Below, piece by piece: positions 21,993 through 58,876 of a DNA stretch of 58,958 nucleotides. Source of the DNA: a bacterium (GTDB taxonomy: Bacteria; Patescibacteriota; Minisyncoccia; UBA6257); NCBI GenBank assembly GCA_039793615.1, contig JBAMLJ010000028.1, positions 1 to 58,958 of the forward strand. Reading direction: 5' to 3'. The stretch's first letter is position 1. Each line of letters opens with the position of its first letter. The notes beneath the pieces are model-generated. The model ran no database searches, had not been told where the DNA came from, and saw only the letters and a list, made by a program, of their open reading frames with translations. A program made the translations under genes and the position numbers.

Positions 21993-24900
21993 TTATTCAA
22001 TTATTTTCTCTTGTTGAATAAAGTTTTCTTTGTTATTTTCCTCATTTTTAATACCTAATAAATTAACCGCCAAACCTAATGCTTGTAATTCTTTAAGAAT
22101 TACATTAAAGGCCGCGGGGATGTTAGGACTTTTTATTTTTTCTCCTCGAATAATAGCTTCATAAGTAGCCGCTCTTCCGATAATATCATCGGATTTTATA
22201 GTAATCATTTCTTGCAAAGTATAAGCGGCACCATAACCCTCTAAAGCCCAAACCTCCATTTCTCCAAATCTCTGGCCACCATGATGAGCTTTTCCTCCTA
22301 ATGGCTGTTGGGTTACTAAAGAATAGGGTCCAATAGAACGCATATGAACCTTATCTTCAACCATATGTTCCAATTTCAAAATATACATTACTCCAACTGA
22401 AACTGGCTGTTTAAACGGTTCTCCTGTTTTTCCGTCATAAACTGTTAATTTTCCATCTTCGGGCAAACCAGCGGCTTTTAATTCATTTTTGATATCCTCC
22501 TCAGAAGCACCATCTAAAGCAGGGGTAATCGCTTGATAATTTAAAACTTTACAGGCCAAACCTAAAGCATTTTCAAAAATTTGCCCCAAGTTCATTCTTT
22601 TACCAACTCCTAAAGGATTTAAAACAATATCAACTGGAGTTCCATCTTCTAAATAAGGCATATCTTCCTCGGGGAGAATAACAGAGATTACTCCTTTATT
22701 ACCATGACGACCAGCTAATTTATCACCTGCCTGTAATTTTCTTAATTCCGCGATCTCAACACTAATTCTTTTGATAATACCAGGATCTAATTTATCATTA
22801 TTTTCTCGGCTTAAAATCTTTGTTCTAATAACTCTTCCCCGACGAGAAGGATCTAGAGTTAAAGATGTATCTTTTACATCTTTTATCTCTTCGCCAAAAA
22901 TTGCTTGAAGCAATCTTTCCTCTGGGGTTAATTCTACTTTTCCTTTGGGAGTAATTTTACCAACTAAAATATCACCGGGTTTTACTTCAGCTCCAATTCT
23001 TACTATTCCATCTTCATCTAAATCTTTTAATTTTTCTTCTGAAACATTAGGGATATCCCTAGTTGTCATTTCCGGTCCCAATTTTGTATCTAATACATCA
23101 CAAGTAAATTCTTCTAAATAAACAGAGGTGAAATAATCATTTTTTAAAACCCTTTCTGAAACAACAATTGCATCCTCGTAATTAAAACCATAAAAAGGAA
23201 TAAAAGCAACTACTAAATTTTGCCCCAATGCTAATTGACCATTATCACTAATAGAACCATCGGCTAATAAATCATATTTTTTAACTCTTTGTCCCTTCTT
23301 TACTACTGGTCTTTGATGGAGACAACTATTTTTATTACTTCTTTCAAAAACAATTAATTGGTATTCTTTTAATTTATTTTCATCTGTTTTAATAATAATT
23401 TTAGAACTATCAACAAAAACAACTTCTCCATCAACATCACTTAATAAACAATGGCCTGATTCAAGAGCAATTTTCTTTTCCATTCCCGTAGCTACTAACG
23501 GAGCCTGTGGCCTAACACAAGCTACTGCCTGTCTTTGCATATTAGCACCCATTAAAGCACGATTAGATTCATCGTGTTCTAAGAACGGGATCAAACTCAC
23601 AGCTGCCGAAATTGTCTGTTGACACGAAATATCCATTAAATCAACCTCTTCGCGAGAGACCATAGTTGGCTCACCATTTACCCTTGCCCCCACAAATTTG
23701 TCTTTAATACGATAATTTTCATCTAGATCGATTCCTCCATGAGCTATTTTATGTTTTAGTTCTTCAAAAGCATCTAACCAAACAATTTCTTTGCTAACTT
23801 GACCATTTTTAACCTTAACATAAGGCGTTTCAATAAAACCAAATTCATTTAATTGAGCATATAAAGCCAAAGATAGTACTAAACCAATATTTTGACCTTC
23901 TGGAGTTTGGATGGGACATAAACGGCCATAATGACTTGGGTGAACATCACGTACTTCTAAGCCAGCCCTTTCTCTAACCAAACCGCCTGGACCGGTAGTA
24001 GTAACTTTCCTTTTGTGTTCCAATTCAGAAAGCATATTCATCTGCTCCATAAATTGACACAAAGGAGAAGTATTAAAAAACTCTCTTAAACTGTTTATTA
24101 ATTGTCGAGGATTAATTAATTGCGCCGGGGTTAAAGTTGAAGGATCTAAAGTAGCCATGCGATCCTGAATAGTTCTTCTCATTCTCATTACTCCAACGCG
24201 AAAACGCTCTGTTAAAAGCTCTCCTACAGCTCGAATTCTTCTATTCCCTAAATGGTCAATATCATCATCTTCGCTATTAGGATCTAAATTTAATCTAATA
24301 ATTTCTTTTATTGTCTCAATTAAATCATCTTTGGTTAAAAATCTTTGTGTAATAGGAATATTTAAATTTAATCTTTGATTTATTTTATGACGGCCAACTT
24401 TACCTAAATCGTAACGATCTCGACGAAAAAACATATTGTCGATTAAATCTTTACTGTTATCGTAAGTAGCCAATTCTCCTGGTCTTAAACGACGGTAGAC
24501 CTCAATATACCCCTCTTCTTGATTAGTTGATTCGTCATGTTTTAAAGTGGCATCAATATATTCCATTAAAGAGGGATCTTTAAAACCATCAAAATATTCC
24601 CTAATTTGTTCGTTATTTTCAAAACCAAAAATTTTGAGTAAAGCAGTGACCGCAATTTTTCTTTTTTTATCTATTTTAACCCAAATAGTTTTTTCCGGAT
24701 CAGTTTCGAATTCCAACCAAGAACCGTGGGTTGGTAATAATTTAGCACCAAATAATTTAATTCCTCTAAAATTTACTGATTGAAAATAAACTCCAGGAGA
24801 ACGATTGATTTGCGAAATAACAACTTTTTCGACACCATTAATAATAAAAGTGCCACGGGGTGTCATCAAAGGTATTTCTCCAAAATATACTTCTGCTTCT

Positions 24901-34468: not shown

Positions 34469-34838
34469 GGGGATGTTCGGATTCGCTAGAAAGGAATTTC
34501 TTAATACGCGAACTGAGGAACTTCGTTAGCTCATTAAAATCGAAGGGCACAAAAAATGCCAATCAAATTCCTGCCTATGCCTATGCTTAATAGCTTAGGA
34601 TAGGTTTCTCCTTCTTTAAGGAGCCCTCTTTAATTAATTCTCGGTAAATTAAAGGGGGAAGAATATCGAGATAGATTTAAATTAACTTATCCGATTAATT
34701 TAAATCGAAATTCATTCGGATAGTTTTAAGAAAACGTTTTGTTCAGTTTCGTTTCTTAAAACTATAAAAACTGAACTACGTTCGTAGAAGTATTAAGAAT
34801 GCACTTTCTAGACGCGAGTTCAACTCTCGCCATCTCCA
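34469..34838 (+). ncRNA. ssrA: tmRNA (SsrA), tag ORF ANQIPAYAYA*
   Basis: The 5' end GGGGAUGUUCGGAUUCG pairs with the 3' end CAUCUCCA. T-arm is GCGAG-UUCAACU-CUCGC. The resume region AAAAAAU|GCC AAU CAA AUU CCU GCC UAU GCC UAU GCU UAA UAG spans 34558-34590. CCA is not encoded. Confidence 0.9.
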
Positions 34839-34885
34839 CTCTCGAGCCATAACAAACAGTAATAAATTGTTAATCTTTAAACATT

Positions 34886-36785: not shown

Positions 36786-39293
36786 TCATTTCAAAGTTAT
36801 TATTTCAAAGTTATTATTTCGATAAACAAAATGTATTTTACTATGAGTTTTTATTTCCCCTTTTAAAATTACTTGCGCTAATCTATCTTTAATATAATGT
36901 CTAATTACAGAATCTAGAGGACGGGCACCAAAAACTGGATTATATCCTAATTGAGCAATTTTATTAATAACTGAATCATCAAAATCAACTGATATGTTTT
37001 TATTCTGTAATATTTTAGTTAAATTATTTAATTTTAATTTTACAATTTGTTTAAGATTATCCTCAGTTAAAGGTTTAAAAACAACGATTTCATCAAAACG
37101 ATTTATTAGTTCAGGCTTAAAGTAATTGGTTAATTTTTTCTTTAAATCATCAGTTAATTCTTTAAATGGCACTTTAACTTCAATTTGCTTTTTAATGTAA
37201 TCCGATAAAGCATTGGAAGTGGCAATAATAATAGTATTAGTAAAATCAATTACTTCGCCTAAATTATCGGTTAATCTTCCTTCGTCAAATAAAGGCAAAA
37301 AGAGATCTAAAACTTTAGGATGAGCTTTTTCAAATTCATCCAAAAGAATTAAAGAAAAAGGCTTATCTTTTACAGCTTCAGTCAAAGCCCCCCTTGTTGT
37401 TCCTTCAGGATCGCCAATAAAACGGAAAATGCCTCGTTGATCCTGATATTCTGACATATCAAATCTAATCATAGTTTTAACACTTCCAAAATAAACTTGG
37501 GCCAGATTTTTAGCTAATTCAGTTTTTCCTACTCCAGTGGGACCGACAAATAAGAAAACTGCAATTGGTTTATTGGGATTACTTAAACCAGCACGATATT
37601 GCCTAATAGCACTTGCTACCAAACGCACTGCTTCTTCTTGATTAATATAATTTTCGTGAAGATATTTTTCTAAATTTAATAATTTATTTTTATCTTCTTC
37701 ATCAGAAATTTCTAAAGGAATACTAGTTTTAACACTTACTAAATCCACAATATCTTTTTCAGTTACCACACTTTTACCCATTTGTTTTACCCCTTCCAAT
37801 GCTTCATGAATTAATTTTTCTGCCGAAGATGGCAAGGGAACATTAGTCAAGAAGCGTTTTGCTAAAAAAACAGCTCTTTTAATTGCTTGATAAGTAATAG
37901 TTATTTTTTCTTTTCTTTCTAAATCGATACTTCGGAAGGCTAAAATTTGAATCGCCTCTTCTTCTGATACTTCATTTACTTTTATGATTTCAAAATTATC
38001 CTGAATAAAAGAGTCTTTTTCTAAAAATTTCTTATAATCTTCTATTGTAGAAGTGGCAATTAATGGTAAATCACTAACGATTAATGGTTTTAAAATTTCT
38101 AAAGAACTCAATCCTCCTTCTTGGGTAACTAATTTATAATTATGAAGGTCCGGTAAATATAAAATAATATCATTATTATTTAAAACTTCTCTTACAATAT
38201 TTGATAAATGATTGGTAACATCTAAAGGAGAAGTAATATTTTGTAGTAAATTAGTAAAAGGAAGTTTAATGAGGCGAAAATCTAAAAGTGGTTTGGGAAC
38301 ATTATTTTTAGTTAAATTATGCGCTAGATAAGAGATAATTGTTTCTTTACCTGAACCCTCTTGACCAATTAATAAAACACACTTTTTAAGGGGACGGCTT
38401 AAAACAGTAATTAAAGTTTTATATTCTTCATTATGGCCAATCATTATTCCGATACGATATTGTTGGGCCAAATCAGTATAATCTAAACCAAATTCATCGA
38501 GAGTTGGGGTTGGTAATGATGTTAAAGAACGATTAACTTTTGCCCTCTTTTTAAATTTTTCGTATCTATTTTGAATTTCCGAAATACCGCTAATTAAATT
38601 AAGGTTTCTTTGTTTTGATAATAAATTAATAATAATACCAATTTGCGCATCTGTTAGGGTAATATTTAAATCAGTAAAAATATTATTAATGGTAGGATCA
38701 TTTAAGTCAAAAAGAGCCAAGAAAAGACAATAATTATTTAAAAATGATTGTTTAATTAAAAATGATTTTTGCAAAGCACTTAAGAGTAAAGAATAAATAA
38801 AATCTTTTTCTTTTTGTTTTAAGATTGTTATTTCTGAACTATTTTTAAAGTTTTGAATAATTAATTCTTTAATTTGTTTTATTTTTACAAAATCAATGTC
38901 TAAATATTTTAAACTAGTAATAATTTCTTGTTTTTCCAATAAAACATAAATTAAAGAACTCCCTAAAGGCATTTTAAAATAATAGGACAAAAAACGAGCT
39001 TCAACTAAGACATTTTTAGTATTTTCATCTAAAAACCAACCTAAATTAACTCGATCTTTTTTAAGAATTTTTTCGGTCAAAGGATAATCGGAAAAACGAG
39101 AGCGAAAGACAAGAAAGATAAAAAAGAAAGTTAGAAGAATGCCAAAATAAGAATAAGGTTTAATTGATACTAAACTAATGATAATACAAATAATTAATCC
39201 TGACCAAAGAAAAAAATAAAAAAGCAAACGATAAATAATAATTTTCCAGCGAGGCCAAAAAAGATATTTATTTTCTAAATAATATAATGACAT
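36786..39293 (-). CDS. Membrane-anchored Clp/Hsp100-like double AAA+ ATPase with a degenerate first Walker A
   Basis: N-terminal TM helices (aa about 15-75) and Clp_N-like repeats. D1 reads LLIGQEGSGKETIISY (GK-E instead of GK-T/S). D2 reads [19 protein letters not shown], with LLDEFEKAH and GARPLDSVI. Confidence 0.75.
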   Translation of the reverse strand: MSLYYLENKYLFWPRWKIIIYRLLFYFFLWSGLIICIIISLVSIKPYSYFGILLTFFFIFLVFRSRFSDYPLTEKILKKDRVNLGWFLDENTKNVLVEARFLSYYFKMPLGSSLIYVLLEKQEIITSLKYLDIDFVKIKQIKELIIQNFKNSSEITILKQKEKDFIYSLLLSALQKSFLIKQSFLNNYCLFLALFDLNDPTINNIFTDLNITLTDAQIGIIINLLSKQRNLNLISGISEIQNRYEKFKKRAKVNRSLTSLPTPTLDEFGLDYTDLAQQYRIGIMIGHNEEYKTLITVLSRPLKKCVLLIGQEGSGKETIISYLAHNLTKNNVPKPLLDFRLIKLPFTNLLQNITSPLDVTNHLSNIVREVLNNNDIILYLPDLHNYKLVTQEGGLSSLEILKPLIVSDLPLIATSTIEDYKKFLEKDSFIQDNFEIIKVNEVSEEEAIQILAFRSIDLERKEKITITYQAIKRAVFLAKRFLTNVPLPSSAEKLIHEALEGVKQMGKSVVTEKDIVDLVSVKTSIPLEISDEEDKNKLLNLEKYLHENYINQEEAVRLVASAIRQYRAGLSNPNKPIAVFLFVGPTGVGKTELAKNLAQVYFGSVKTMIRFDMSEYQDQRGIFRFIGDPEGTTRGALTEAVKDKPFSLILLDEFEKAHPKVLDLFLPLFDEGRLTDNLGEVIDFTNTIIIATSNALSDYIKKQIEVKVPFKELTDDLKKKLTNYFKPELINRFDEIVVFKPLTEDNLKQIVKLKLNNLTKILQNKNISVDFDDSVINKIAQLGYNPVFGARPLDSVIRHYIKDRLAQVILKGEIKTHSKIHFVYRNNNFEIITLK

Positions 39294-39662: not shown

Positions 39663-40922
39663 TTAAAAAAGCAATTTTTGTTCTTTATCTTTCTCAAATT
39701 TTTTATTTTCATCGATTAAAACATGAATTTTCCCATATTCTCCATCATAACCAGCAATAAGTTCAACTTTATCTTGTCGCACATTAATAATTGCTTCAGC
39801 AATTTGTTCTTTTGTTATTGTTTTTAATTCTTCTAAAGAAGTATCTAATAAAATTGTAAATTCATTTTTAAAATGATGAACTAGTTTTTGATATTCTTCT
39901 TCTACTAATTTTGTTTTTACTTGAACATTTAAAACATCAGCAATAATTTCTCTTAGGGGAATTAAATGTTTAAAAGGAATTGCATTGTCTGGAATAAAAC
40001 CATACGGACGATCAGCTAAATCTTCTACCCTTGATAAAACTCCAATTGTTAAAGGCTTGTGACAAACGGGACAAATTCCATTTACTTTTTTTCTTTCTTC
40101 TGGGCTCATACTCACTTTACATAATCGATGACCATCATAATGGTATTTACCTTCTTCAGGATAAAATTCGATAGTATATAAAAATTTATTTCGATCTTTA
40201 TTAACAATTGCTTCTTTTAGGGCGTAATAATCAAAATCAATATCGAAAACGTTTGCTTCTCTACCTAAATTATTAAGAGAATGAGCATCAGAATTAGAAA
40301 CTAAAGCAAATTGATCTAATTTCGAAAACATCCAATTCATCTTGGGATCACTACTTAAACCAGTTTCTAAGGCAGAAATTAAATTAATATTATTATTAAA
40401 AGCCTCTTCTAAACTATCAAAACCAGACATTGAACCAAAAACAGAAAACCAGGGTGTCCAAATATGAGCCGGAATAAACATTGCTTCCTTCTCGATATTA
40501 AAAACAATTTTTAATAATTCCTCCGAATCTAATCCTAAAATTGGCCTCCCATCGGCTTTTAAATTTCCATGCCAAGATAAAACATTATTAATTTTTTCTG
40601 CAGCTTCTAAAGACGGAACGATTACCAAATTATGAACCCTTCTTACTCTTTTATTTTTCGTATAAATATTAGAAATTTCTACACTTAAGATAAAACGGAG
40701 TTTAGAGTTTTGGTCATCATTTTTTAAACGATATAAACCTCTTTCTGCCGGCTCTAATTTTTCTTTTAATTCTTGAAACCATTCTGGGTGAGTAAAATCT
40801 CCAGTAGCCACAATATTTAGTCCTTTTTCTTTAGCTTTTAAGGCAATATGTTCTAAATCCATATCCTTCGAGGTTGCTCTCGAATATTTAGAATGAATGT
40901 GTAGATCAACTATTATTCTCAT
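39663..40922 (-). CDS. PHP-domain nuclease of the endonuclease Q-like (TIGR00375-type) family
   Basis: VDLHIHSKYSRATS (PHP motif I), GDFTHPEW, SNSDAHS, the Zn finger CPVCHKPLTIGVLSRVEDLA, and C-terminal GYDGEYGKI. Confidence 0.55.
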   Translation of the reverse strand: MRIIVDLHIHSKYSRATSKDMDLEHIALKAKEKGLNIVATGDFTHPEWFQELKEKLEPAERGLYRLKNDDQNSKLRFILSVEISNIYTKNKRVRRVHNLVIVPSLEAAEKINNVLSWHGNLKADGRPILGLDSEELLKIVFNIEKEAMFIPAHIWTPWFSVFGSMSGFDSLEEAFNNNINLISALETGLSSDPKMNWMFSKLDQFALVSNSDAHSLNNLGREANVFDIDFDYYALKEAIVNKDRNKFLYTIEFYPEEGKYHYDGHRLCKVSMSPEERKKVNGICPVCHKPLTIGVLSRVEDLADRPYGFIPDNAIPFKHLIPLREIIADVLNVQVKTKLVEEEYQKLVHHFKNEFTILLDTSLEELKTITKEQIAEAIINVRQDKVELIAGYDGEYGKIHVLIDENKKFEKDKEQKLLF

Positions 40923-40950: not shown

Positions 40951-41022
40951 TATCCCCAACAAGACTCGAACTTGTATCTCAAGCTCCGGAAGCTTGCGTT
41001 TTATCCGTTAAACTATGGGGAC
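40951..41022 (-). tRNA. tRNA-Arg (anticodon CCG)
   Basis: Hand-folded cloverleaf. Acceptor is GUCCCCA/UGGGGAU plus discriminator A. D arm is GUUU-AACGGAUA-AAAC. Anticodon arm is CAAGC-UUCCGGA-GCUUG. T arm is ACAAG-UUCGAGU-CUUGU. CCA is not encoded. Confidence 0.85.
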
Positions 41023-48096: not shown

Positions 48097-50685
48097 TTAA
48101 TCTAAATCACCCCAATTATCACCGATGGCACTATTTGTTTTAAGAGGAACTATTAAAAGATAGGCATGATTCATAATATCAATTAATTGAGGCAATACTT
48201 CTTTTATTATCTCAGTTTTTACCTCAAAAATCAATTCATCATGGATTTGTAAAATTAATCGCACTTTATTTTCATAATTATTCTCCTTAATAAAGTTAAA
48301 ACAATTAATCATTGCTAATTTAATGATATCACTAGCTAATCCCTGAATGGGCATATTAATTGCCATTCTTTCTTCTTCGCGACCAATCTGTCCTAAAGAA
48401 CCGATTAAAGGCAGAATCCTTTTTCTTCCTAAAATTGTTTGCGAATACCCTAATTCTTTCGCCTGTTTTAAAGTATTATCTAAATACATCTTTAAACCAC
48501 TAAATTCTTCGAAATATTTTTCTTTAAATGCTTTTGCTTCTTTTAAACTAATATTAGCACTCTCACTTAAAGACTTATCTCCAATGCCATATAAAATGCC
48601 AAAATTAATAATTTTTGCTAATCTTCTTAACTCTGGTGTGACTTCTGATTCTTTAATATTCTTAAGATAACTTGCAGTTAAAGTATGAATATCTTTATCT
48701 GATTTAAAAGCTTCGATTAATTTAGAATCCTGAGATAAATGAGCAGCAATTCTTAATTCAATTTGAGAATAATCTAATGATAAAAACTGAAAACCCTCTT
48801 GCGCTTTAAAAGCATGTCTAATTTTCTTCCCCCACTCCCCTTTTAAAGGAATATTCTGTAAATTTGGTTCTTCAGAAGATAAACGACCAGTACTTGTTCC
48901 CGTTTGTTTCCAAATAGTATGAATTCGCTTTGTTAAAGGATTAATAAATTGGGGTAACGGGATTAAAAAACTATTTAACATCTTTTCTAGTTGACGATAT
49001 TCAATAATTTTAGGAACAATAGGGTGATCATTTTTGATTTTTTCTAATTCATTAATATCAGTAGAAGGAATGCCGGAAGCTGTTTTCCTTACTTTATTAA
49101 TATCTAATTTCAAATCAGTAAACAAAACTTCAGCTAATTTTTGGTAAGAATTAATATTAAATGTTTTTTGGGCTAAATGATAAATTTCTGAAGCTAATTT
49201 TTGAATTTCATCTTCAGCCTCTTTTGATAATTCATCTAATTCTTGAGAATCAGCAAAAATACCGTTTTTTTCCATTGATACTAAAACAGGAATCAGTGGT
49301 TTTTCAATTGTTTCCCATAAATGTTTTAAATTAAGTGACTGTACCTTATTTTCAATTTCCTCTCCTAAATTTATAATTTCTTGTAAATAATTTAATTTTT
49401 CATTAAAAGTTTTCTTAAGGAAAAATTTAACTAATGATGATAATTCGTAATTTTTTCTTTCAGAATCAATAAGCCAACTTAAAATTTCTAAATCTTTTAA
49501 ATCTAAATTTTTTACCTCTTCTATTTCTTCAATTAAATTTTTTAATCCTAAAGTATAACCAGGAATTTTAAAATTAATTTGATTTATTTTCTTTTTGAAA
49601 TCATTTAATTTTTTTTCTTCTAAAAAATATACTCCGTGAGGCAAAATTATATATAAACCATTAATTTGCCTCTCATAAATTTTTTTACCATTGTAGTCTA
49701 AATACAACCCGTATTTTAAAGAAGAGTTTATTTTTTTAATAACCTCATCTAAATCTTCATTATTATTTATATAATTTAAGTTTACTTTAATCTCTGGTGT
49801 TGTTAATGGTTTCGAAGTTAAACGGTTTAATAAACTATTAAAACCTAACGTTTTAAATAGCGGGGCAATCTTATCCAAAGGAGGTTCATGATATCTTAAA
49901 TCTTCTAAAGAATAATCTAAAGGAATAGTAGTATCAATTAGAGATAAATGGCGACTAAAATAAGCTTGATCTTTATTTTCTAAAAGCGTCTTTTTTAATT
50001 TTTCACTGAGAGAAGTAATTTTTTTATTACTTTCTAAAGCTTCGTATAAATTATCTAAGGAACCAAATTCCTTAATAAGCTTAATTGCTGTTTTTTCACC
50101 CACTGAAGGTACCCCGGGAATATTATCAGAAGGATCTCCTTTTAAAGCTTTAAAATCAATTAATTGTTTTGGTATTAAATCATATTTTTCCTTAATTGCT
50201 TTTTCGTCATAAATTACCACGTCTTGCAAACCCTTTTTAAAAGTATAAATTTTCGTTTTATCATTAACCAATTGAAGAGTATCTAAATCGCCAGTTACAA
50301 TAATAAATTCTAAATCTTCGTGATAAAATTTATTTACCAAAGAACCAATAATATCATCGGCTTCATAGCTTTCCTGAGCAATTATGGGAATCCCCCATGT
50401 GTTCAAAATATTTTTTAAAACACCAATTTGCTCATAAAAATTATCTGGTGCTTTTACTCTTTGAGCTTTATATTCTTTATACTCTAAGTGGCGAAAAGTT
50501 GGTTTTGCTAAATCAAAAGCAGCCACTAAGTAATCCGGTTTTAAAATATCAATCATTTTTAAAAACACCAACAAAAAACCATAAACTGCATTTACTAATT
50601 TTCCCTCAGGAGAAACTAAAGGTGGTAAGGCATGATAAGCCCGATGAGCCAAAGCATAGCTATCAACAATGACAAATTTTTTCAT
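48097..50685 (-). CDS. polA: DNA polymerase I
   Basis: 5' nuclease domain (GDPSDNIPGVPSVGEKTA) and polymerase motifs LDYSQIELR, RRLAKIINFGILYG and QIHDELIFE. Confidence 0.95.
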   Translation of the reverse strand: MKKFVIVDSYALAHRAYHALPPLVSPEGKLVNAVYGFLLVFLKMIDILKPDYLVAAFDLAKPTFRHLEYKEYKAQRVKAPDNFYEQIGVLKNILNTWGIPIIAQESYEADDIIGSLVNKFYHEDLEFIIVTGDLDTLQLVNDKTKIYTFKKGLQDVVIYDEKAIKEKYDLIPKQLIDFKALKGDPSDNIPGVPSVGEKTAIKLIKEFGSLDNLYEALESNKKITSLSEKLKKTLLENKDQAYFSRHLSLIDTTIPLDYSLEDLRYHEPPLDKIAPLFKTLGFNSLLNRLTSKPLTTPEIKVNLNYINNNEDLDEVIKKINSSLKYGLYLDYNGKKIYERQINGLYIILPHGVYFLEEKKLNDFKKKINQINFKIPGYTLGLKNLIEEIEEVKNLDLKDLEILSWLIDSERKNYELSSLVKFFLKKTFNEKLNYLQEIINLGEEIENKVQSLNLKHLWETIEKPLIPVLVSMEKNGIFADSQELDELSKEAEDEIQKLASEIYHLAQKTFNINSYQKLAEVLFTDLKLDINKVRKTASGIPSTDINELEKIKNDHPIVPKIIEYRQLEKMLNSFLIPLPQFINPLTKRIHTIWKQTGTSTGRLSSEEPNLQNIPLKGEWGKKIRHAFKAQEGFQFLSLDYSQIELRIAAHLSQDSKLIEAFKSDKDIHTLTASYLKNIKESEVTPELRRLAKIINFGILYGIGDKSLSESANISLKEAKAFKEKYFEEFSGLKMYLDNTLKQAKELGYSQTILGRKRILPLIGSLGQIGREEERMAINMPIQGLASDIIKLAMINCFNFIKENNYENKVRLILQIHDELIFEVKTEIIKEVLPQLIDIMNHAYLLIVPLKTNSAIGDNWGDLD

Positions 50686-50690: not shown

Positions 50691-51170
50691 TTAAAGTTTG
50701 AAAGGAAAATAAATTTCGATTAATCTTTTATCGTCAGCGATAATTTTAAATTTAAGACGAAGGGAATTTTTTGGTAATAATTTTTTAATTTTGTTACCCC
50801 ACTCAATAAAAATAATATTATTTTTATCATTAATAATATCTTGTAAACCAATCTCAGTTAATGATTTTTTATCAAAAACGCGATAGCAATCTAAATGCCA
50901 TAAACTTTTAAAGAAACAATCATTCAAATCATATTTTCTCATCACAATAAAAGTCGGGCTAATAATTTTATTTTTTAATTTTAAACTCTTTGCTATTCCT
51001 TTTAAAAATTCTGTTTTCCCGCTTCCTAAACTACCCTCTAAGGAAACAACTATTGCTTTTCCTTTAAAATATTTTTGAAAAAATTCCTTGTTATAAAAAA
51101 TCGTTTTGATTAATAAATCAGCTAAATCATGGGTTTCTTTTATACTTTTACTTTCTAATAAAATCTTCAT
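50691..51170 (-). CDS. tsaE: tRNA t6A37 biosynthesis ATPase TsaE
   Basis: LEGSLGSGKTEFLKG Walker A, SPTF, and HLDCYR. Confidence 0.85.
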   Translation of the reverse strand: MKILLESKSIKETHDLADLLIKTIFYNKEFFQKYFKGKAIVVSLEGSLGSGKTEFLKGIAKSLKLKNKIISPTFIVMRKYDLNDCFFKSLWHLDCYRVFDKKSLTEIGLQDIINDKNNIIFIEWGNKIKKLLPKNSLRLKFKIIADDKRLIEIYFPFKL

Positions 51171-51191: not shown

Positions 51192-51220
51192 TTGACTTTA
51201 AGGGAAAGAGATGAGATAAT
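51192..51220 (+). promoter_or_regulatory. Candidate sigma70 promoter for the tandem PilB gene
   Basis: TTGACT (51192-51197), a 17-nt spacer, then GATAAT (51215-51220). It sits 21 nt upstream of the ATG. Confidence 0.45.
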
Positions 51221-51241: not shown

Positions 51242-54142
51242 ATGGATGATATTTTAAAGAAACAACAAGATAAAATCAAGCGTCTTTGGCAAGATTCAAA
51301 AGAAAGATTAACAAACGAATTAGCGATAAAAAAGAATCTTTTGTATGCTAATTTAAAATTAGTGAATATTAGCCCAAGTGCTGTTGAAGTTATTCCCGAA
51401 GAAGAAGCAAAACAAGCACGAGCAGTTGTTTTTGAAAAAGTAAGCAATAATTTAAGATTGGGTGTCGTTGATCCTGATAATCTAGAAACAATAAAACTAA
51501 TCGAGAAATTAAAAGCACAAAACTATCGCGTTGTTATTTATGTTATTACCGAAGAAAGCCTAAAACATGCTTTATCTTATTATCAATTCGTTAAAAAAAG
51601 AGCTAACGAAATTAGTAATTTTATTGATGTTAGTTCGATTAAAGAAATCGAATTTTCTAATTTAAATCAAGAGCTATTAAATTACCCTTCAACTGAAGTT
51701 ACCAGTATCATTGGTTTAATTTTAAAAACGGCTATTTTAATTGACGCCTCTGATATTCATATTGAACCACAAAGCAAGACAGCTTTAATTCGTTTTCGTG
51801 TTGGTGGGATTTTATACGAAGTAGCAGAAATTGATAAAGATAAATATCAAAAACTTTTATCGCGTTTTAAAATTTTAAGTGGAATCAAATTAAATATCAC
51901 TCTTTCTCCACAAAATGGACGTTTTACTATTAAAAATCATAATGATTTCTTTGATGTTCGTGTTTCCACTTTACCGGGCCCAGAAGGAGAATTTATTGTT
52001 TGCCGTATTTTAAATCCCAAAAGAGCTACTTTTGGATTAAAAGATTTAGGATTGAGAGAAAAAGATGAAAAACTTTTGAAAGAAGTAATGTCTTTACCTA
52101 ATGGAATGATAATTTTAACTGGTCCAACTGGTTCTGGTAAAACTACTACCCTATACGCTCTATTAAAAGAAAAAATTTCGCCGGGAATAAAAATTATAAC
52201 CATTGAAGATCCCATTGAATATCATATAAATGGCGTGAATCAAACACAAGTTTCTAAAGATTATACTTTCGAAACAGGTTTAAAATCGATTTTACGTCAG
52301 GATCCTGATGTTATTATGATTGGTGAGATGCGTGATAAAGAAACGGTCAAAATTGCCCTTCAAGCAGCTTTAACCGGGCACTTAGTTTTATCAACTCTAC
52401 ACACCAACGAAACAGCCGGAGCAATTGATCGTTTAAAAGAATTGGGAGCTGATTTAAATATCATTCCAGGAGCAGTACGTTTAATTGTAGCCCAAAGATT
52501 AGTAAGAAGACTATGTCCTTATTGTAAAGCAAAATACGAATTAACGCCTGAAGAAAAGCAACAAATCATTGATGCTTTCTCTATTTTATCTCCTAAAAGC
52601 GGGGTTAAAATTCCTAATGATATCCCCCTTATTTATAAAAGCGTTGGTTGTGAAAAATGCCATTATTTGGGTTATACTTCTCAAATTGGTCTTTTTGAAA
52701 TGATGCCTATTACTCCTAAAATTACTGAAAAAATACTACATAATGCCAGTAAAGACGAAATCAGAAAAACAGCTATTGACGAAGGAATGATTCCCCTTTT
52801 TCATGATGGTTTATTAAAGGTAATGGAAGGAATTACTTCTTTAGAGGAAATAATTCGTGTTGCTGGGGATATTGAATATGTAAAAAAGAGTTATGAAGAA
52901 CTTTTTTCTCAAACTCTTTTAAGAGGCATAAAACTCCTTCCTCAAGATGAAGAAAAAATTGAAGAATATCAAAAAAATAGAAAACCCATCAATGAATTAA
53001 TTGAAAATTTACCTTTAGACAAACAAATTCATTATCTTATTAGCTGGGCTTTAAAAGCTCGTGCTACTGATATTCATTTTGAACCCGAAGAAAAACAATT
53101 AGTAGTAAGAATTCGTGTTGACGGTATTTTGTATCTCTTAACCTCTTTCGATTTAAGCGAAGCTAATCAAATTTTAAACGAGATAAAATCTCTAAGTGGG
53201 TTAAATACCGAAGAAACACAAAAGGTTCAAGAGGGCCGTTTTCGCATTATCACTAAGGATAAATCATTAGATGTTCGCGTGTCTATTTTACCAAGTGGCT
53301 ATGGGGAAAGCGCTGTTTTAAGATTATTAGGAAGCGATATTAAAGCAGTTTCTATTAATAATATCGGATTATTAGACGAACAGAAAAAAATAGTTTTAGA
53401 ATCACTAAAAGATAAAGTTGGTTTAATTCTAACTACTGGCCCAACTTCCTCTGGGAAAACCACAACTCTTTTCGCTCTTCTTAAAGAATTAAATCAACCT
53501 GGAGTAAAAATTATTACTGTAGAGGACCCAATAGAATATCGTTTAGAAGGCGTTAATCAAACTCAGGTAAACGAAGAAAAAGGTTATACTTTTGCTAATG
53601 CTTTAAGAACTCTTCTAAGACAAAATCCCAATATCTTTCTTATCGGCGAAATTAGAGATGATGAAACTGCAAAAATGGCTTGGCAAGCAGCTCTAACCGG
53701 TCATTTAGTTTTATCAACCATTCATGCTAATGATACCCTAGAGGTTTTACCTCGTCTAAAAAGTCTAGGGATCGAAGCGCCTGATATTAAAAAAGCTTTA
53801 AGATTAGTAATTGCTCAAAGATTAGTAAGAAAATTATGCCCTTATTGCAAAAAAGAAGTATTAGCACCTAAAGAATTAAAAGAGTATATTGAACACGCTT
53901 TAGACAAATATCCTTCTTATAAAGACAAATTTAAACCTCCTTATAAAATTTATCAACCCTCGGGTTGCGAACATTGTAATTTTATTGGTTATTTAGGGCA
54001 AACAGCAATTTTTGAATTATCAACTCCACAAGATTTAGAAAAAGACAAACCAGAATTCCCCCGTTTGATTGATAGTGCCATTATAAAAATGCTAGAAGGA
54101 GAAACTTCTTTCGAAGAAATAAAAAGAGTTTTAGGAATATAA
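51242..54142 (+). CDS. Tandem-duplicated type II/IV secretion (GspE/PilB-family) ATPase: N1E-like domain plus two complete N2E-ATPase-Zn modules in one ORF
   Basis: Module A has GPTGSGKTTT, ITIEDPIEY, DPDVIMIGEMRD, TGHLVLSTLHTN and CPYC...CEKC. Module B has GPTSSGKTTT, ITVEDPIEY, NPNIFLIGEIRD, TGHLVLSTIHAN and CPYC...CEHC. 966 aa, uninterrupted. Confidence 0.85.
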   Translation: MDDILKKQQDKIKRLWQDSKERLTNELAIKKNLLYANLKLVNISPSAVEVIPEEEAKQARAVVFEKVSNNLRLGVVDPDNLETIKLIEKLKAQNYRVVIYVITEESLKHALSYYQFVKKRANEISNFIDVSSIKEIEFSNLNQELLNYPSTEVTSIIGLILKTAILIDASDIHIEPQSKTALIRFRVGGILYEVAEIDKDKYQKLLSRFKILSGIKLNITLSPQNGRFTIKNHNDFFDVRVSTLPGPEGEFIVCRILNPKRATFGLKDLGLREKDEKLLKEVMSLPNGMIILTGPTGSGKTTTLYALLKEKISPGIKIITIEDPIEYHINGVNQTQVSKDYTFETGLKSILRQDPDVIMIGEMRDKETVKIALQAALTGHLVLSTLHTNETAGAIDRLKELGADLNIIPGAVRLIVAQRLVRRLCPYCKAKYELTPEEKQQIIDAFSILSPKSGVKIPNDIPLIYKSVGCEKCHYLGYTSQIGLFEMMPITPKITEKILHNASKDEIRKTAIDEGMIPLFHDGLLKVMEGITSLEEIIRVAGDIEYVKKSYEELFSQTLLRGIKLLPQDEEKIEEYQKNRKPINELIENLPLDKQIHYLISWALKARATDIHFEPEEKQLVVRIRVDGILYLLTSFDLSEANQILNEIKSLSGLNTEETQKVQEGRFRIITKDKSLDVRVSILPSGYGESAVLRLLGSDIKAVSINNIGLLDEQKKIVLESLKDKVGLILTTGPTSSGKTTTLFALLKELNQPGVKIITVEDPIEYRLEGVNQTQVNEEKGYTFANALRTLLRQNPNIFLIGEIRDDETAKMAWQAALTGHLVLSTIHANDTLEVLPRLKSLGIEAPDIKKALRLVIAQRLVRKLCPYCKKEVLAPKELKEYIEHALDKYPSYKDKFKPPYKIYQPSGCEHCNFIGYLGQTAIFELSTPQDLEKDKPEFPRLIDSAIIKMLEGETSFEEIKRVLGI

Positions 54143-54225: not shown

Positions 54226-54399
54226 AAAACCCATTAACCTGCAGGCAAAGTTCCCTCATCAAGAGGAATTTAGAATTCGATCAAGGTACATTTCAGTCGG
54301 AACCAAAATGCCCATTGATACAGAATTCCAACAAGCCATCCACAAATATTGTAGCTTGTTTGCCCACAGATTAATGGGTTTTTTAAAATTAAAAATACT
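54224..54399 (-). ncRNA. Unclassified structured RNA of about 175 nt (6S-like candidate, class not established)
   Basis: A perfect 14-bp closing helix 54224-54237/54371-54384, extended by 54239-41/54367-69 and 54244-49/54359-64. There are internal hairpins and an apical stem 54280-93/54306-19. Two near-consensus promoters lie upstream on the minus strand, and the 3' stem is followed by U6. The region is a GC-richer island. Confidence 0.5.
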
Positions 54400-54630: not shown

Positions 54631-56997
54631 TTAATCTGCTATTTTATCCCATTCCCCTTTCTCAACTATCTCAATAAAGTTATTCACCGCTTCTTGATAC
54701 TGAGAATTTAATTCAACAACTTTTTTTGCGTATTCAATCGCTTTTTCTTTATTGTGTAATTTAGCGTAAGTAGCAGCGAGATGAATGTATACTGATGGAT
54801 TTTTAGGATCTAATTTTAATTCTTGCTCATAAAGCTTAATAATTCTTTGATAGTCTTTATGTTGTGCCAATATTTTAACTAAATTATTCATTAATTGAGA
54901 ATCATTAAAAACATAACCATTATCCAAAGCTTTGACGAAATAATCAAAACTTGAAGTGGTGTTATTTTGCATCAAATAATAATACCCCATTAAATAATTA
55001 GCAATATTATTATTAGGATCCAATTGTAAAACTTTCTCAAGCTCCAATTTTGCTTTTTCTGATTCATTTAAAAGAAAATCTAATTTGGCTGAAATTAAAT
55101 AAGTTTGCGGAAAATAAGGAGCAATTTTAATTAAATCATCCCTGATTTGTTTTGCTTCCTCTAATTTTTCTTTATTCCACCGAGACTCATAAATGATTAA
55201 TTGTAATTTATTAAATACTAAACGATAATTCCATGGTTCTTTCTTTAATAAATCATCGCTTAATTTGATTAATTCGTTAATTAATGGTTCGATTTTTTCA
55301 TTAATAACGCCGTAACTGCCTATAATATTATACGTACCAATTACTAAATCTTTTCTTAAATTATCCATTTTGCCAATGGAATAATTTAAACTCTTAAATT
55401 CGCTTAAAGCGTCATCATATTTTTGAGCAGCGATTAAACGAGCCAAATTAATAATTCCTTGACTAATGGAATAAGTTTTTACTACTATTTGGGATAGAGA
55501 GAAAATAATTAAACAAAAAGCACTAATTAAAATAAAACCCTTTAATAGCTGAAAAGCATAATCTTTTCTTTTTAAAGCGACTGAAGAAAAACCATATTCT
55601 TTTAAAATCATATCTTCTGATCGGCTTAAAACTGGAATAAATCCTAATACCAAAAAGAACATCAAATAACTTTCATGAAAATCAAAAAGAAAAATATTTT
55701 GAACAAAATAACTAATAATTAACGACTCGAAAACAACGCTTTGAATAAAACCTCCCTCTTGTTGGCGTTTTCTTTGAAGTAAAATAAAAGTAACGATAAA
55801 AATTCCTAAATAAGAAATAAATCCAACCAAACCAGTAGTAGCTAAAACTTCCATTATTTTATTATGAGCACGATCAAAATAAAAATCTTCAGGTAAAACT
55901 TTTACTACCTCAGGATTAAAATTCTTTAAATAGGCAGGCTCATAATTTTCGATCCCCCATCCAAAAATTGGTTTTTCCAGAAAACTTTTAAAGGCAGTTT
56001 CTGCTGATAAAAGACGTGACATTCCAGTAGGATCTTTATAAGAAATTGAGGTTAAGCGCATTAGGGCAAAATTATTTTTAACAAAATTAGTATTCTTCAA
56101 ACTAAAAACTGTGATCAAAAAAATAGTAATTATTACCAAAACAATTAATGATAATTTTTTAAAAACTAAAAACTCTTTGCGGGAAGAAATTAATAAATTA
56201 ACAATTAAAAATAAAATACCAATTCCTAAACCAATCATCCCTCCTCTTGTTCCTGAAATAAAAACCAATAAAGCATCAAAAACAGCAATCCCTAACCACA
56301 AGAAGCTCTCTTTTTGAGGAAAGAGACTTTTTACTGTTGTTTTAAGTGAAGCCTTAACCGAATCTCTTAATCCAAAATGTTTTGCAGTTTTAATGGCATT
56401 AGAATTCTTGGCAATGATATTTATTTGCTCCAGCAATAAGCTGTCAAAATAAAAGTATAAAGCTAAAAAACAATTAAATATAAAATAAGTAGCCAAATAA
56501 GAAGGATTACCGGTAAAACCAGATAAACGTGGCGTTGGCTGCACTGATCCAATTGCCATCCCCTTATAAATTAATAATGATAAAATACCATAAAAAGTAC
56601 TAATAAAAATTTCAATTTTAAATAATTGTTTAAACTCATTAAAATCAAAAACATTAGTAATGATGATAAAGAAGATAATGAAATGCCAGACACCAATTAC
56701 TCCCTCCATTCTTTCACAACCAGATAACAAACTCCAAATTAAATTAACTCCAAAAAATGCTGATAGAAAAACAGCAATCCCATAAATTAATAAAAAAACC
56801 GTTAAGGCATTAACTTTAAATTTTGCTTCCCCTCTCGTAATCATTAACAAATACACCAAAAGCATTGCTTCTACAATTATCCGAAAAACAGTTGCTTTAG
56901 CAACAATAAAAGGAAAATAAGTGCGAGAAGAAACCAAAAAAGGCGTCAATAAAGTCGCGATTGTAAGGTAAAAAAGTATAGATTTTAAGTTTGACAT
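54631..56997 (-). CDS. O-antigen ligase (Wzy_C)-like polytopic membrane protein fused to C-terminal TPR repeats
   Basis: About 12 TM helices with the ligase-like loop SGTRGGMIGLGIG, then a TPR-like C-terminal third (AKLELEKVLQLDPNN, YEQELKLDPKNPSVYIHLAATYAKL). Confidence 0.7.
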   Translation of the reverse strand: MSNLKSILFYLTIATLLTPFLVSSRTYFPFIVAKATVFRIIVEAMLLVYLLMITRGEAKFKVNALTVFLLIYGIAVFLSAFFGVNLIWSLLSGCERMEGVIGVWHFIIFFIIITNVFDFNEFKQLFKIEIFISTFYGILSLLIYKGMAIGSVQPTPRLSGFTGNPSYLATYFIFNCFLALYFYFDSLLLEQINIIAKNSNAIKTAKHFGLRDSVKASLKTTVKSLFPQKESFLWLGIAVFDALLVFISGTRGGMIGLGIGILFLIVNLLISSRKEFLVFKKLSLIVLVIITIFLITVFSLKNTNFVKNNFALMRLTSISYKDPTGMSRLLSAETAFKSFLEKPIFGWGIENYEPAYLKNFNPEVVKVLPEDFYFDRAHNKIMEVLATTGLVGFISYLGIFIVTFILLQRKRQQEGGFIQSVVFESLIISYFVQNIFLFDFHESYLMFFLVLGFIPVLSRSEDMILKEYGFSSVALKRKDYAFQLLKGFILISAFCLIIFSLSQIVVKTYSISQGIINLARLIAAQKYDDALSEFKSLNYSIGKMDNLRKDLVIGTYNIIGSYGVINEKIEPLINELIKLSDDLLKKEPWNYRLVFNKLQLIIYESRWNKEKLEEAKQIRDDLIKIAPYFPQTYLISAKLDFLLNESEKAKLELEKVLQLDPNNNIANYLMGYYYLMQNNTTSSFDYFVKALDNGYVFNDSQLMNNLVKILAQHKDYQRIIKLYEQELKLDPKNPSVYIHLAATYAKLHNKEKAIEYAKKVVELNSQYQEAVNNFIEIVEKGEWDKIAD

Positions 56998-57200: not shown

Positions 57201-58847
57201 TCATTGTAAACTTTGATTGGCAACTGTCCGGGTTAACGGTCCAAAATAACCAGTCTGCGCTATTCCCTTCATTGCTTGATAACGTTTTACTGCTAACATA
57301 GTTAATGGTCCGTAATAACCAGTAATTAATTTTTCTGGGTAAATATCACTTCCTAAATTAGCCAAAAATTGCTGCAAACATTTTACTTCATTAGATTTCA
57401 TACCATAAGATAAATCCTGAGTAAAAACAGAACATTTTAAATTATTCTGATAAACATTTTTTAAAGCAATCAACATTTGTAATTGAGCCACTCTTCTTTT
57501 TAATTCCTCAATTTGAGCCTGAAGTTGATTAATTAAAGCCTGGTCATTATCTTTATTCTGTCCTAAATTTTGCGCTTCAAAGGAATAATAATAAAGTCTT
57601 CCTTTTTCTGCTCTACTTGGTAAATAAGGGATGAAATAAATGGCGATATTTTTAGTACCTATATCAGTAACATATATTTCTTGAATATTAGTATTATTAA
57701 AATCAACAAAATTTAAAGTTTTCTTGCCATCAATACTTTCAATAATATAAGGAATTTTAGAAATAGGTGTTTGCTCGGGGATAGTAAACTTCAATTTTAC
57801 TGTTCCTAATCCGCCGTTAAGTTTTTGCCATTTACCTGTTAAAGCTTTTAAAGAATCGGTTACTGATAATGAACTTTTCTCTTGTAGTGGCAAATAATAA
57901 GAATAAGCTTTAATAGAATAATTTTTTAAAATAGGATCTTGATAACAATATTTAAAATTATTCGTTTCGCAAGTATTATATAAATTAGTAATTAACCAAT
58001 TTAAGAAAACTTCGTCTAAATTCGTTCCCCTTTTTTTTAAAGCTTCATTTAAAGAAACAAAACCGTCTTTGGAGGGGTATTTTAAGGCATCAGCAAAAAT
58101 TCCGTTACCAAATTGTTCTCTTAAATACAAAGCCAATAAATAAACTTTACCATAATCTTTATTAGAATTAGCCCAATCTTCTAAATTAACTTCAGTGGAA
58201 TAAAGTAATGCTTGAGCTCGTTGTTTAGTAATTTGGCTGATATCAACGCCAATGGCCTGGCCAGCAAATTCAGACATCATCTCATAAAACCAAGTTTGAG
58301 AATCTGGTTTTTGTTTTAAAGTAATTAAGTGAGTAAATTCGTGAGCTAATTCATAATCTAAAAAATTACTATCAGCCTTAGTAATTAAATTACTATTTAA
58401 ATAAATAATTTGGCCTTGATTAGACTGCGGGTAAATTGTTTTGGGATATTCATCCCCTGACTGGATATAGCCGCCATAATTATCTTTTAAGGGTTCTAAA
58501 ACAATCACAATTTTTGGATCATTATCAACTCCGGGATTATCCTCTGAACCTAATAAATTTGTTAAAAAAGGATAAATTTTATATTCAAAATCGCTGGTTA
58601 AATTATAAAGCTTACTATCTAAAGTATTTTTATCAGGAAAATTATTATACCAAGTTTTATCAGCATAAAAATAGAGCTTATTGGTAATTTTAATTAGTTG
58701 AACATCAATTTGATTTCTGCCACTTAAATCATAATTAGAATCAACAAAAAGAGTTTCATTTTGCGACCAAGCAAAAACCAAAGAAGGTAGAATTAAAAGC
58801 CCTAAAAAGAAACCAAAAAAAATCTTTTTGTTTAATAATAGCGACAT
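57201..58847 (-). CDS. Secreted putative zinc metallopeptidase (HExxH) with coiled-coil and a C-terminal peptidoglycan-binding domain
   Basis: Signal-like N-terminus MSLLLNKKIFFGFFLGLLILPSLVFA, HEFTH within ELAHEFTHLI, coiled coil LINQLQAQIEELKRRVAQLQ, and a PG_binding_1-like tail (VKCLQQFL...YYGPLT..AVKRYQ...G..TGYFGPLT). The first ATG is at 58847 and a TTG at 58871 is possible. Confidence 0.6.
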   Translation of the reverse strand: MSLLLNKKIFFGFFLGLLILPSLVFAWSQNETLFVDSNYDLSGRNQIDVQLIKITNKLYFYADKTWYNNFPDKNTLDSKLYNLTSDFEYKIYPFLTNLLGSEDNPGVDNDPKIVIVLEPLKDNYGGYIQSGDEYPKTIYPQSNQGQIIYLNSNLITKADSNFLDYELAHEFTHLITLKQKPDSQTWFYEMMSEFAGQAIGVDISQITKQRAQALLYSTEVNLEDWANSNKDYGKVYLLALYLREQFGNGIFADALKYPSKDGFVSLNEALKKRGTNLDEVFLNWLITNLYNTCETNNFKYCYQDPILKNYSIKAYSYYLPLQEKSSLSVTDSLKALTGKWQKLNGGLGTVKLKFTIPEQTPISKIPYIIESIDGKKTLNFVDFNNTNIQEIYVTDIGTKNIAIYFIPYLPSRAEKGRLYYYSFEAQNLGQNKDNDQALINQLQAQIEELKRRVAQLQMLIALKNVYQNNLKCSVFTQDLSYGMKSNEVKCLQQFLANLGSDIYPEKLITGYYGPLTMLAVKRYQAMKGIAQTGYFGPLTRTVANQSLQ

Positions 58848-58876
58848 TAAAAATATAATACCACAAAACAATGTAA

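Follow-up and report, generated by a model that had tools for sequence, protein, structure and literature searches.

A tandem-module PilB/GspE-type ATPase encoded by an orphan gene lineage of Patescibacteria

We analysed contig JBAMLJ010000028.1 of assembly GCA_039793615.1 (58,958 nt, approximately 28% G+C), the whole of which is called the window in what follows, and found that one gene, at 51242..54142 on the forward strand, encodes a PilB/GspE-type ATPase with two complete ATPase modules in a single polypeptide. This two-module architecture is genuine, and it had been correctly described in an initial annotation of the DNA. The two-module form proved not to be confined to this genome: at least 120 clusters of related proteins make up a conserved family. 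The gene represents a genuine and conserved tandem PilB/GspE, an orphan paralog specific to Patescibacteria, and, taking all the evidence together, we consider it reasonably probable that its product would assemble as a trimeric ring of six modules and power a type IV filament function.

One reading frame with two complete modules

The gene is one unbroken ATG-to-stop open reading frame (ORF) of 966 amino acids (aa) plus the stop codon, and corresponds to NCBI protein MGB9763066.1, labelled 'GspE/PulE family protein [Minisyncoccia bacterium]'. Pfam analysis gave an MshEN domain and two stretches of T2SSE (PF00437), together 709.4 bits against a gathering cutoff of 24.9, which confirmed the covalent double PilB/GspE. 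The best T2SSE stretch (aa 153-539) spans nearly the whole profile. In the secondary structure predicted with AlphaFold2 (AF2) a long helix at aa 2-30 precedes the N1E/MshEN domain. This N1E domain is present once per polypeptide, i.e. there is one docking domain per two ATPase modules. Both complete modules were found where they had been placed before, with their limits revised from about aa 150-545 and 590-966 to about 151-543 and 592-966. The features of the gene are as follows.

51242..54142, forward strand: whole ORF, tandem-module PilB-family ATPase, 966 aa (ORF list, Pfam, NCBIfam)
51344..51586, forward strand: N1E/MshEN-like domain, aa 35-115 (Pfam MshEN, 34.3 bits, cutoff 23.1; AF2 secondary structure)
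51692..52870, forward strand: module 1, aa 151-543, with N2E-1 at about 151-270 and the C-terminal domain CTD-1 at about 271-543; Walker A GPTGSGKT 294-301, Asp box TIEDPIEY 320-327, RQDPD 352-356, Walker B 357-365 (IGEMRD, catalytic Glu E362), His box TGHLVLSTLH 378-387, cysteines C425/C428/C470/C473
52871..53014, forward strand: inter-module linker, aa 544-591
53015..54139, forward strand: module 2, aa 592-966, with N2E-2 at about 592-709 and CTD-2 at about 710-966; Walker A GPTSSGKT 733-740, Asp box TVEDPIEY 759-766, derived RQNPN 793-797, Walker B 798-806 (IGEIRD, catalytic Glu E803), His box TGHLVLSTIH 819-828, cysteines C866/C869/C909/C912

Walker A, the Asp box, the Walker B glutamate, the His box and the CxxC pairs, all reported earlier for both modules, were each located twice, and the four cysteines form a putative Zn element in either module. 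In the subfamily of the window protein the C-terminal subdomain of module 2 is about 15 aa shorter than that of module 1. The two halves are 44% identical as proteins (blastp 2e-102). As DNA, their best match was 67% over 446 nt, with no common exact word of at least 17 nt, in agreement with the earlier view that they diverged long ago and do not stem from a recent duplication or an assembly stutter.

On the whole protein the PilB and GspE models of NCBIfam ranked first, and their equivalog cutoffs were exceeded only through the summing of the two modules. Searches with each half, which had been proposed with the initial annotation, placed both in the PilB/GspE type. Module 1 with N1E scored 427.8 bits with PilB (TIGR02538) and 426.5 bits with GspE (TIGR02533), and module 2 scored 353.7 and 366.7 bits, respectively; both halves were below the equivalog cutoffs of 675.65 (TIGR02538) and 630.25 (TIGR02533). 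The PilT model (TIGR01420) gave 167.3 and 158.6 bits for the two halves and did not reach its cutoff of 319.1. ComGA (NF041000), the fifth-best model for each half, gave 247.0 and 258.8 bits and did not reach its cutoff of 300. The tetracysteine element is a mark of PilB/GspE and is not known from PilT. As judged from these scores and motifs, both modules are of PilB/GspE type and not PilT. The earlier idea that extension and retraction might be combined in one protein is therefore unsupported, and a PilB-PilT fusion was rejected by the scores of each half and the tetracysteine in both. Long matches in other phyla were considered as possible fusions as well, and those among the matches listed were ordinary adjacent pilB-pilT or pilB-pilT-pilB genes. 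A regular-expression search for the MshEN motif that binds cyclic di-GMP (c-di-GMP), RLGxx(L/V/I)(L/V/I)xxG(L/V/I)(L/V/I)xxxxLxxxLxxQ, gave no match in the whole protein, and a c-di-GMP-sensing MshE-like N terminus was rejected on account of the absent motif.

Sequence matches in the PDB were PilB, GspE and PilF, with PilB the best (E about 1e-94 for module 1 and about 1e-74 for module 2). PilB (G. metallireducens 5TSG/5TSH/6OLJ, G. sulfurreducens 5ZFR, M. xanthus 3JC8) has the same N2, RecA-like CTD, Walker A and B, Asp and His boxes and tetracysteine as each module, and the N1E/MshEN-type N terminus is common to both proteins. However, PilB has one module per chain, whereas the window protein has two, with one N1E for the pair. 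The window gene also differs from PilB in being unlinked to pilT, pilC and pilMNO and in belonging to a separate clade from the operon PilBs of the same phylum (199 of 200 bootstraps). GspE/EpsE (Vibrio 1P9R, 4KSS, 4PHT) shares the domain set and motifs, TIGR02533 ranking first or second among the NCBIfam models with either half, and has an N1E like the one bound to GspL in 4PHT. The window protein differs from it by the double modules and has no type II secretion system genes nearby; Patescibacteria are not known to have an outer membrane. The GspE entries 4KSS and 4KSR are listed as joined to Hcp1, a fusion reportedly engineered to force the hexamer, whereas the window protein naturally joins two ATPase modules. 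PilF of Thermus thermophilus (6F8L, 5OIU) is a PilB-family protein with an expanded, repeated architecture, sharing 39% identity with the window protein in its core (TM 0.91). Its long N terminus consists of repeated N1E/GSPII-type domains. In its 913 aa the match to the ATPase core lies at about 400-885, and the core is thus C-terminal and single, in contrast to the window protein, which repeats the ATPase module itself.

Next we determined how widespread the architecture is. A search of 5.8 billion protein clusters was made, of which the best 120 matches, as clusters at the 90% level, were listed. All of these were 925-1020 aa long, with 96-100% query coverage and 39-86% identity. At least 120 clusters thus share the full-length two-module architecture, and dozens more were found in a second search. 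The matches came from NCBI, JGI, ENA and Logan assemblies and were labelled Parcubacteria, Paceibacterota, Falkowbacteria, Buchananbacteria and Patescibacteria. With HMMER, 14,705 members of the ATPase family (E<=1e-30) were detected among 1.84 billion representatives at the 50% level, and 13 of them were full-length doubles. The double architecture is rare in the whole ATPase family, yet it forms a solid lineage. One double has been in GenBank since 2015 (KKU82539.1), and doubles are annotated generically, as 'GspE/PulE family protein' or 'PilB'. A search of full-text literature, subscription-only papers lying outside it, gave no account or characterisation of a tandem PilB/GspE, and no double-module PilB/GspE chain was found among the PDB matches, which upholds the earlier statement that this is not the described architecture for type IV pilus motors. 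As far as we found, the architecture is undescribed; the ATPase family itself is well known.

The two modules could also have been joined by error, if the contig was mis-assembled or chimeric, or if a stop or frameshift separating two ordinary neighbouring pilB genes had been overlooked. Such separate neighbours do exist, as in the locus L061, where genes for 577 and 567 aa lie 4 nt apart. However, more than 120 clusters, drawn from separate assemblies in four data sources, have the same unbroken ORF, as do 14 fetched loci (L001-L003, L006, L084-L087, L093-L095). The second module is never found with its own N1E or start context, the motif of the linker is conserved and under purifying selection, and the halves have no long nucleotide repeat in common. 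The chance that the double is an artefact is in our estimate practically nil, and an assembly stutter or chimera was ruled out by the nucleotide divergence of the halves and the conservation throughout the family.

Three other two-module PilB-like proteins (P0131, P0132 and P0136) were found to be independent of this family. The halves are 74% identical in P0131 and 54% identical in P0132, and the linkers of these are unlike those of the window family. In P0136 (1047 aa) the first module gave no Walker A or His-box match in a regular-expression scan, and the N terminus is a different one, rich in Ala and Arg, which might resemble the cytoplasmic domain of PilC.

Divergence and origin of the two modules

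Conservation was counted in an alignment of the 121 clusters of doubles. The Walker A Lys, the Asp-box E/D, GE.RD and both His-box His were conserved in at least 120 of the 121 in both halves, as were the N2E arginines R240/R255 of module 1 and R666/R679/R694 of module 2. All eight Cys columns were fully conserved (121/121), although some members had CxC spacing at the first pair. The ratio of nonsynonymous to synonymous substitution rates (dN/dS), from comparison with an 86%-identical ortholog (L095), was 0.08 for module 1 and 0.15 for module 2. Purifying selection acts on both modules, and both look catalytically competent from their residues. A dead pseudo-subunit was rejected, as no classical catalytic residue is lost in either half; the earlier claim to this effect was correct, with the addition that the C-half is the more derived.

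We then compared both modules with 127 one-module PilBs, in which 70 columns were conserved at 90% or more. N-modules keep 67 of these columns and C-modules 56. Throughout the family the C-module has RQNPN in place of RQDPD just ahead of the Walker B strand (96% and 84% Asn at the two positions; N795/N797 in the window protein), and Walker A GPTG is changed to GPTS in the C-module of 61% of the members (S736 in the window protein). C-modules also evolve faster, with a median identity of 46% between C-modules and 51.5% between N-modules. At the level of sequence the modules are non-equivalent, with the C-module more derived. Of the two non-equivalent subunit types proposed earlier, the difference between modules was borne out, and it was found to be one-sided.

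Such a one-sided difference would be expected if the trimeric ring alternated catalytic and regulatory sites, only the N-module turning over ATP and the C-module binding nucleotide in a structural or allosteric role, comparable to alpha3beta3 of F1/V1. The lower retention of single-PilB columns in the C-module (56/70 against 67/70), the altered residues beside Walker B and in Walker A, and the faster evolution (46% against 51.5%; dN/dS 0.15 against 0.08) all speak for such an arrangement, and the independent double P0136, with no Walker A or His-box match in its first module in the regular-expression scan, indicates that asymmetric doubles do evolve. On the other hand, the Glu, the Walker A Lys/Thr, the Asp box, the His and the N2E Arg are invariant in the C-module over the 121 clusters, which is unusual for a dead site. 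Moreover, R666 of the C-module never varies, whereas 15 of the 121 have another residue at R227, the equivalent position of the N-module. We regard the division into catalytic and regulatory modules as unlikely.

The linker is 48 aa long (544-591) and of mixed charge, with 10 D/E and 8 K/R; the earlier description of a roughly 45-aa acidic linker did not hold, as it is not notably acidic. Over the 121 clusters it carries a conserved motif, Y546...Y551...Q557.L559.R561-G562 (74-94%), followed by a variable stretch. AF2 predicted a helix at 544-555, disorder at 554-560, a short strand at 562-564 after R561-G562, and then variable helices up to N2E-2. The dN/dS of the linker was 0.18 in the comparison with the same ortholog. 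With hhalign, the profile of the linker aligned collinearly with aa 107-151, i.e. the last N1E helix and the connector of the first half, in a weak match (P=0.006). What is left of the last N1E helix and the N1E-N2E connector of an ancestral second gene may be preserved in the linker, and the collinear alignment, weak as it is, fits an origin from two adjacent full-length genes.

A phylogeny of the halves, likewise proposed earlier, gave a single split between all N-halves and all C-halves of the main family, with 184 of 200 bootstraps. The N and C subtrees have 15 of 23 splits in common, against 0.18 expected by chance, and the N-N and C-C identities are correlated (r=0.95). Together, the split, the common splits and the correlation indicate one fusion event followed by co-divergence without gene conversion. 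A first tree of all 50%-level representatives, with single PilBs of unknown context mixed in, had left the N and C clades unresolved. For a tree of 101 modules the loci were sorted by synteny, and neighbour-joining was done on corrected p-distances with 200 bootstraps. In this tree the modules from the orphan slot (N-halves, C-halves, and standard and short single modules) form one clade against the operon-type and other PilBs, with 199 of 200 bootstraps. The C-halves are monophyletic (169/200), and the N-halves interleave with one-module orphans.

On the simplest reading of the tree, module 1 would be the ortholog of the single orphan ATPase, and module 2 would be a single gain that some lineages have since lost. 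As an alternative to a single gain, neighbour-joining may have drawn the C-halves together through a long-branch effect. We propose that module 2 was acquired in one event. Its source was probably a full-length copy, either a neighbour or a duplicate, from which most of the N1E disappeared, and the two modules would have co-diverged ever since the fusion. In the Omnitrophota locus L061 (9872-13306) two full-length pilB genes stand head-to-tail, and three Planctomycetes loci (L009, L044 and L069) have the order pilB-pilT-pilB. Adjacent pilB genes as in L061, and pilB-pilT-pilB, are plausible precursor states for a fusion.

The one-module and short orphan PilBs (L035 and L028 of Paceibacterota, L012 of Doudnabacteria, and the short L021, L026, L027, L046 and L067) belong to the same clade and have the same neighbours as the doubles. 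They differ from the window protein in having approximately 566 aa, or approximately 440 aa without N1E, and no C-type module or linker motif. No characterisation of the one-module orphan PilBs was found.

The orphan slot and the proposed motor

To classify the surroundings, 90 fetched loci were searched with phmmer seeds and checked with Pfam. The operon-type PilB locus of Patescibacteria has the order pilM ... pilB-pilT-pilC. The orphan-type locus has PolA-TsaE-(DHH) diverging from the ATPase, which is followed by RuvB and RuvC ... dnaN-dnaA. This slot holds doubles, standard single modules of approximately 566 aa (L010, L012, L028, L035 and others), or N1E-less forms of approximately 440 aa. 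Of 21 orphan loci, 13 (L002, L006, L010, L024, L026-L028, L033-L035, L046, L067 and L086) have RuvB 172-1583 bp downstream in the same direction, 8 have a DHH gene directly upstream of the ATPase, and 10 have dnaA at a distance of 6.4-9.3 kb. The left side in the window is as follows.

48097-50685: PolA, upstream of TsaE
50691..51170, reverse strand: TsaE, divergently transcribed neighbour of the ATPase (Pfam TsaE)

The same PolA-TsaE side is present in L001, L087, L093/L094, L095 and many single-module loci. The sublineage of the window has kept this side, and its RuvB side has been replaced by Wzy_C/TPR and PG_binding genes. Among the doubles, L002, L006 and L086 keep RuvB downstream, and L087 keeps RuvC, dnaN and dnaA. 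The order of the slot could reflect either a conserved arrangement of genes near the origin or a functional tie with DNA processing.

In the 59-kb window no T2SSF, PilM/N/O, prepilin-motif ORF or gsp genes were found. The scans thus agreed with the earlier statement that pilC, pilM-Q and pilins are lacking here. The fused loci have no pilus or gsp partner gene within 10 kb, except for L085, where a pilus operon starts with pilM 9.4 kb from the fused gene. Likewise, no pilus genes surround the fused genes of eight other lineages. The orphan status reported earlier therefore stands for the window gene, but it is shared by the whole paralog clade, including the one-module members in the same slot.

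It was then of interest whether a canonical PilB exists beside the double. The fused protein P0034 shares 60% identity with the window protein, and its gene, flanked left and right by the same neighbours as the window gene, lies on the JGI contig Ga0315285_10000005 (299,657 bp). P0347 is a canonical 584-aa PilB in a cluster in which a comF-like gene diverges from pilM-x-pilO-x-pilB. Its longest contig also measures 299,657 bp and comes from the same sources, and both proteins occur in the same ENA sample. From the identical size, sources and sample, a close relative very probably carries the canonical pilM-pilO-pilB cluster on the same contig as the double, and the double would then be an extra motor. 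In L091, the canonical pilM-pilO-pilB cluster of the genome that very probably also has a fused ATPase, three ORFs directly after pilB (12029-14170; 120, 252 and 269 aa) had no Pfam match, and no pilT or pilC was found within 10 kb downstream of that pilB cluster. A full operon, pilM...pilO-pilB-pilT-pilC-pilin, is present in L088, from a related lineage that recodes UGA. The lineage of L085 (P0076, GCA_964475745.1) also reads UGA as sense, and its database protein matches under table 4; the locus has one in-frame TGA in the ATPase gene (10001-12985) and one in pilM (22432-22985). In table-11 gene calls the PilM of the relatives (L088, L089) is truncated at this pilM codon.

The surroundings of the orphan loci could suggest another role, in which the ATPase would be no pilus motor and the PilB fold would be reused for DNA uptake or processing, or for other origin-proximal housekeeping. 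RuvB, DHH and dnaA recur at the frequencies given above, PilC and PilM are lacking within 10 kb of orphan loci, a canonical PilB exists elsewhere, ComGA is among the five best models of each half (247 and 259 bits, cutoff 300), and the window contains ComEC. However, streamlined genomes can inherit gene order without a functional link, and the window's sublineage has lost the RuvB adjacency with the gene still intact. The protein also retains the N1E docking domain and the Zn element that characterise filament ATPases, and DNA uptake of the ComGA type is itself a type IV filament function, so that this alternative partly overlaps with the filament motor that we favour. This other role seems to us quite improbable.

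A full-length AF2 model, built from an alignment of 81 family sequences, reached a mean predicted local distance difference test score (pLDDT) of 87.4 and a predicted template modelling score (pTM) of 0.51. For a construct of CTD-1, linker and N2E-2 the values were pLDDT 89.2 and pTM 0.67. With Foldseek, one PilB-sized part of the model, the output not specifying which module was aligned, matched chains of PilB structures 5tsh, 5tsg and 5oiu with TM 0.90-0.91.

Of the possible assemblies, a trimer forming a pseudo-hexameric ring is, on comparative grounds, the most likely. Forms with one and with two modules stand in for each other within a single slot and clade, and the same six-module ring is therefore the most likely for both: three double chains or six single chains give six modules either way. 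Three polypeptides would thus build one pseudo-hexameric ring of six modules, in which canonical N-type and derived C-type (RQNPN) nucleotide sites would alternate and which would carry three N1E docking domains only. This is an intermediate number, as a ring of the standard orphan would carry six such domains and one of the short form none. As the site types alternate, opposite positions would always differ and strict two-fold equivalence would be impossible; the ring would be limited to three-fold or lower symmetry. It would power a type IV filament, either a pilus or a competence-type pseudopilus, via platform proteins encoded elsewhere, and the double would act as a second motor beside the canonical PilB linked to pilM and pilO.

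A different use of the linker would be to stack the modules, six chains forming an N-ring and a C-ring, with one ring facing the membrane platform. KaiC and the type II AAA+ proteins p97, NSF and ClpB have two nucleotide-binding modules per chain, and in alpha3beta3 of F1/V1 two site classes alternate round a six-site ring. The likeness of the window protein to all of these is architectural only, as Pfam and NCBIfam place it, unlike them, only in T2SSE-type families. Tandem modules in one chain usually stack in other ATPase superfamilies, as in KaiC, p97 and ClpB, a 48-aa linker with a disordered segment could allow it, and the AF2 models leave the inter-module geometry unfixed. However, the one-module forms interleave with the N-modules in the same slot and clade, and the gain or loss of a whole ring is harder to reconcile with this. 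In solved PilB hexamers N2 packs on the CTD of the neighbour, which a covalent pair of neighbours fits, and no stacked double-module chain of PilB/GspE was found among the PDB matches. We consider a stacked double ring improbable, yet it stands as a serious rival to the trimer.

Several points weigh against a trimeric ring that powers a filament. Most orphan loci have no pilC, pilM or pilin within 10 kb, and the link to a filament rests on homology; the genes conserved around them act in DNA replication and recombination and could indicate a different role. Of the 70 conserved positions the C-module lacks 14, including two acidic residues beside Walker B, and it may lack ATP hydrolysis. The AF2 confidence in the inter-module geometry is low, as seen from the pTM of 0.51 and 0.67. 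The placement of P0034 and P0347 on one contig is deduced from size, sources and sample, and is very probable on that basis. The trees were made by neighbour-joining on corrected p-distances, and the deep order within the orphan clade is not robust.

A bolder form of the filament-motor reading is a hard-wired heteromeric motor, a three-chain ring with alternating RQDPD and RQNPN sites and opposite subunits that are never equivalent, in which the orphan clade would possibly couple the ATPase to DNA uptake or recombination in nucleotide-scavenging bacteria. We regard this form as possible but doubtful. PilB/GspE motors have been studied as homohexamers, and current views of their firing order and of two- or three-fold symmetry derive from static crystal and cryo-EM structures. 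Where two non-identical modules are covalently paired by nature, as here, it is settled which sites are adjacent and which opposite, and the symmetry models are thereby constrained. If the alternating ring is real and drives filaments, a PilB-type motor can work without the two-fold symmetric cycle inferred from homohexamers. It would also offer a ready-made system for assigning roles to single sites, since in the double one site class can be mutated without mixed oligomers.

The orphan genes define a second, origin-proximal lineage of PilB paralogs in Patescibacteria, whose epibiotic, scavenging way of life is considered to rely on pili and DNA uptake (PMC8672522). The number of docking domains per ring would have changed within this lineage, among none, six and probably three, which suggests an unrecognised layer in the running of surface filaments. 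With the generic annotation, surveys of gene presence conflate these orphan ATPases with the canonical motor.

Other genes and signals in the window

Two signals close to the ATPase gene were detected with consensus scans, both as pattern matches only.

51192..51220, forward strand: promoter-like site TTGACT-17 nt-GATAAT with TG extension, ending 22 nt before the ATG
54362..54379, forward strand: terminator-like hairpin and T-run, 220 nt past the stop codon

From these patterns the gene looks monocistronic. The 490-bp gap downstream of it contained short ORFs only, with no prepilin motif and no Rfam match, and on the basis of these scans a hidden pilin or RNA gene in this gap was rejected.

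The genes of the window include TsaE, PolA, a histidine kinase, Fpg, HolA, RtcB, RpoB/C, FtsZ/A, aminoacyl-tRNA synthetases, ComEC, Wzy_C/TPR, PG_binding and LytR_cpsA_psr. The earlier mention of ComEC and of surface-glycosylation-type genes was confirmed by ComEC, in the form of two ORFs, Wzy_C and LytR_cpsA_psr. Convergent to the ATPase gene are a gene at 54631-56997 (reverse strand) for a 788-aa protein with Wzy_C (O-antigen-ligase-like) and TPR, and a gene at 57201-58871 (reverse strand) for a PG_binding_1 protein. The same arrangement is found in L001 and L093/L094, which belong to the sublineage of the window. Enzymes of the Wzy_C family include pilin O-glycosylases.

ComEC is encoded at 2850-4782 (reverse strand) by two overlapping ORFs, with Competence at 3685-4782 and metallo-beta-lactamase at 2850-3695, which represents either a natural split or a frameshift. 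A complete ClpB-type AAA+ protein is encoded at 15244-17874 (reverse strand), and a ClpB-like protein at 36786-39293 (reverse strand) had strong Pfam matches in its second AAA domain (AAA_2, ClpB_D2-small) and weak ones in the first AAA region. Two proteins, of 418 aa (39663-40922, reverse strand) and 215 aa (14594-15244, reverse strand), had no Pfam match at E<=1e-5. The only Rfam matches at the gathering threshold in the window were a tmRNA at 34469-34841 (forward strand, 135.7 bits) and a tRNA at 40951-41022 (reverse strand).

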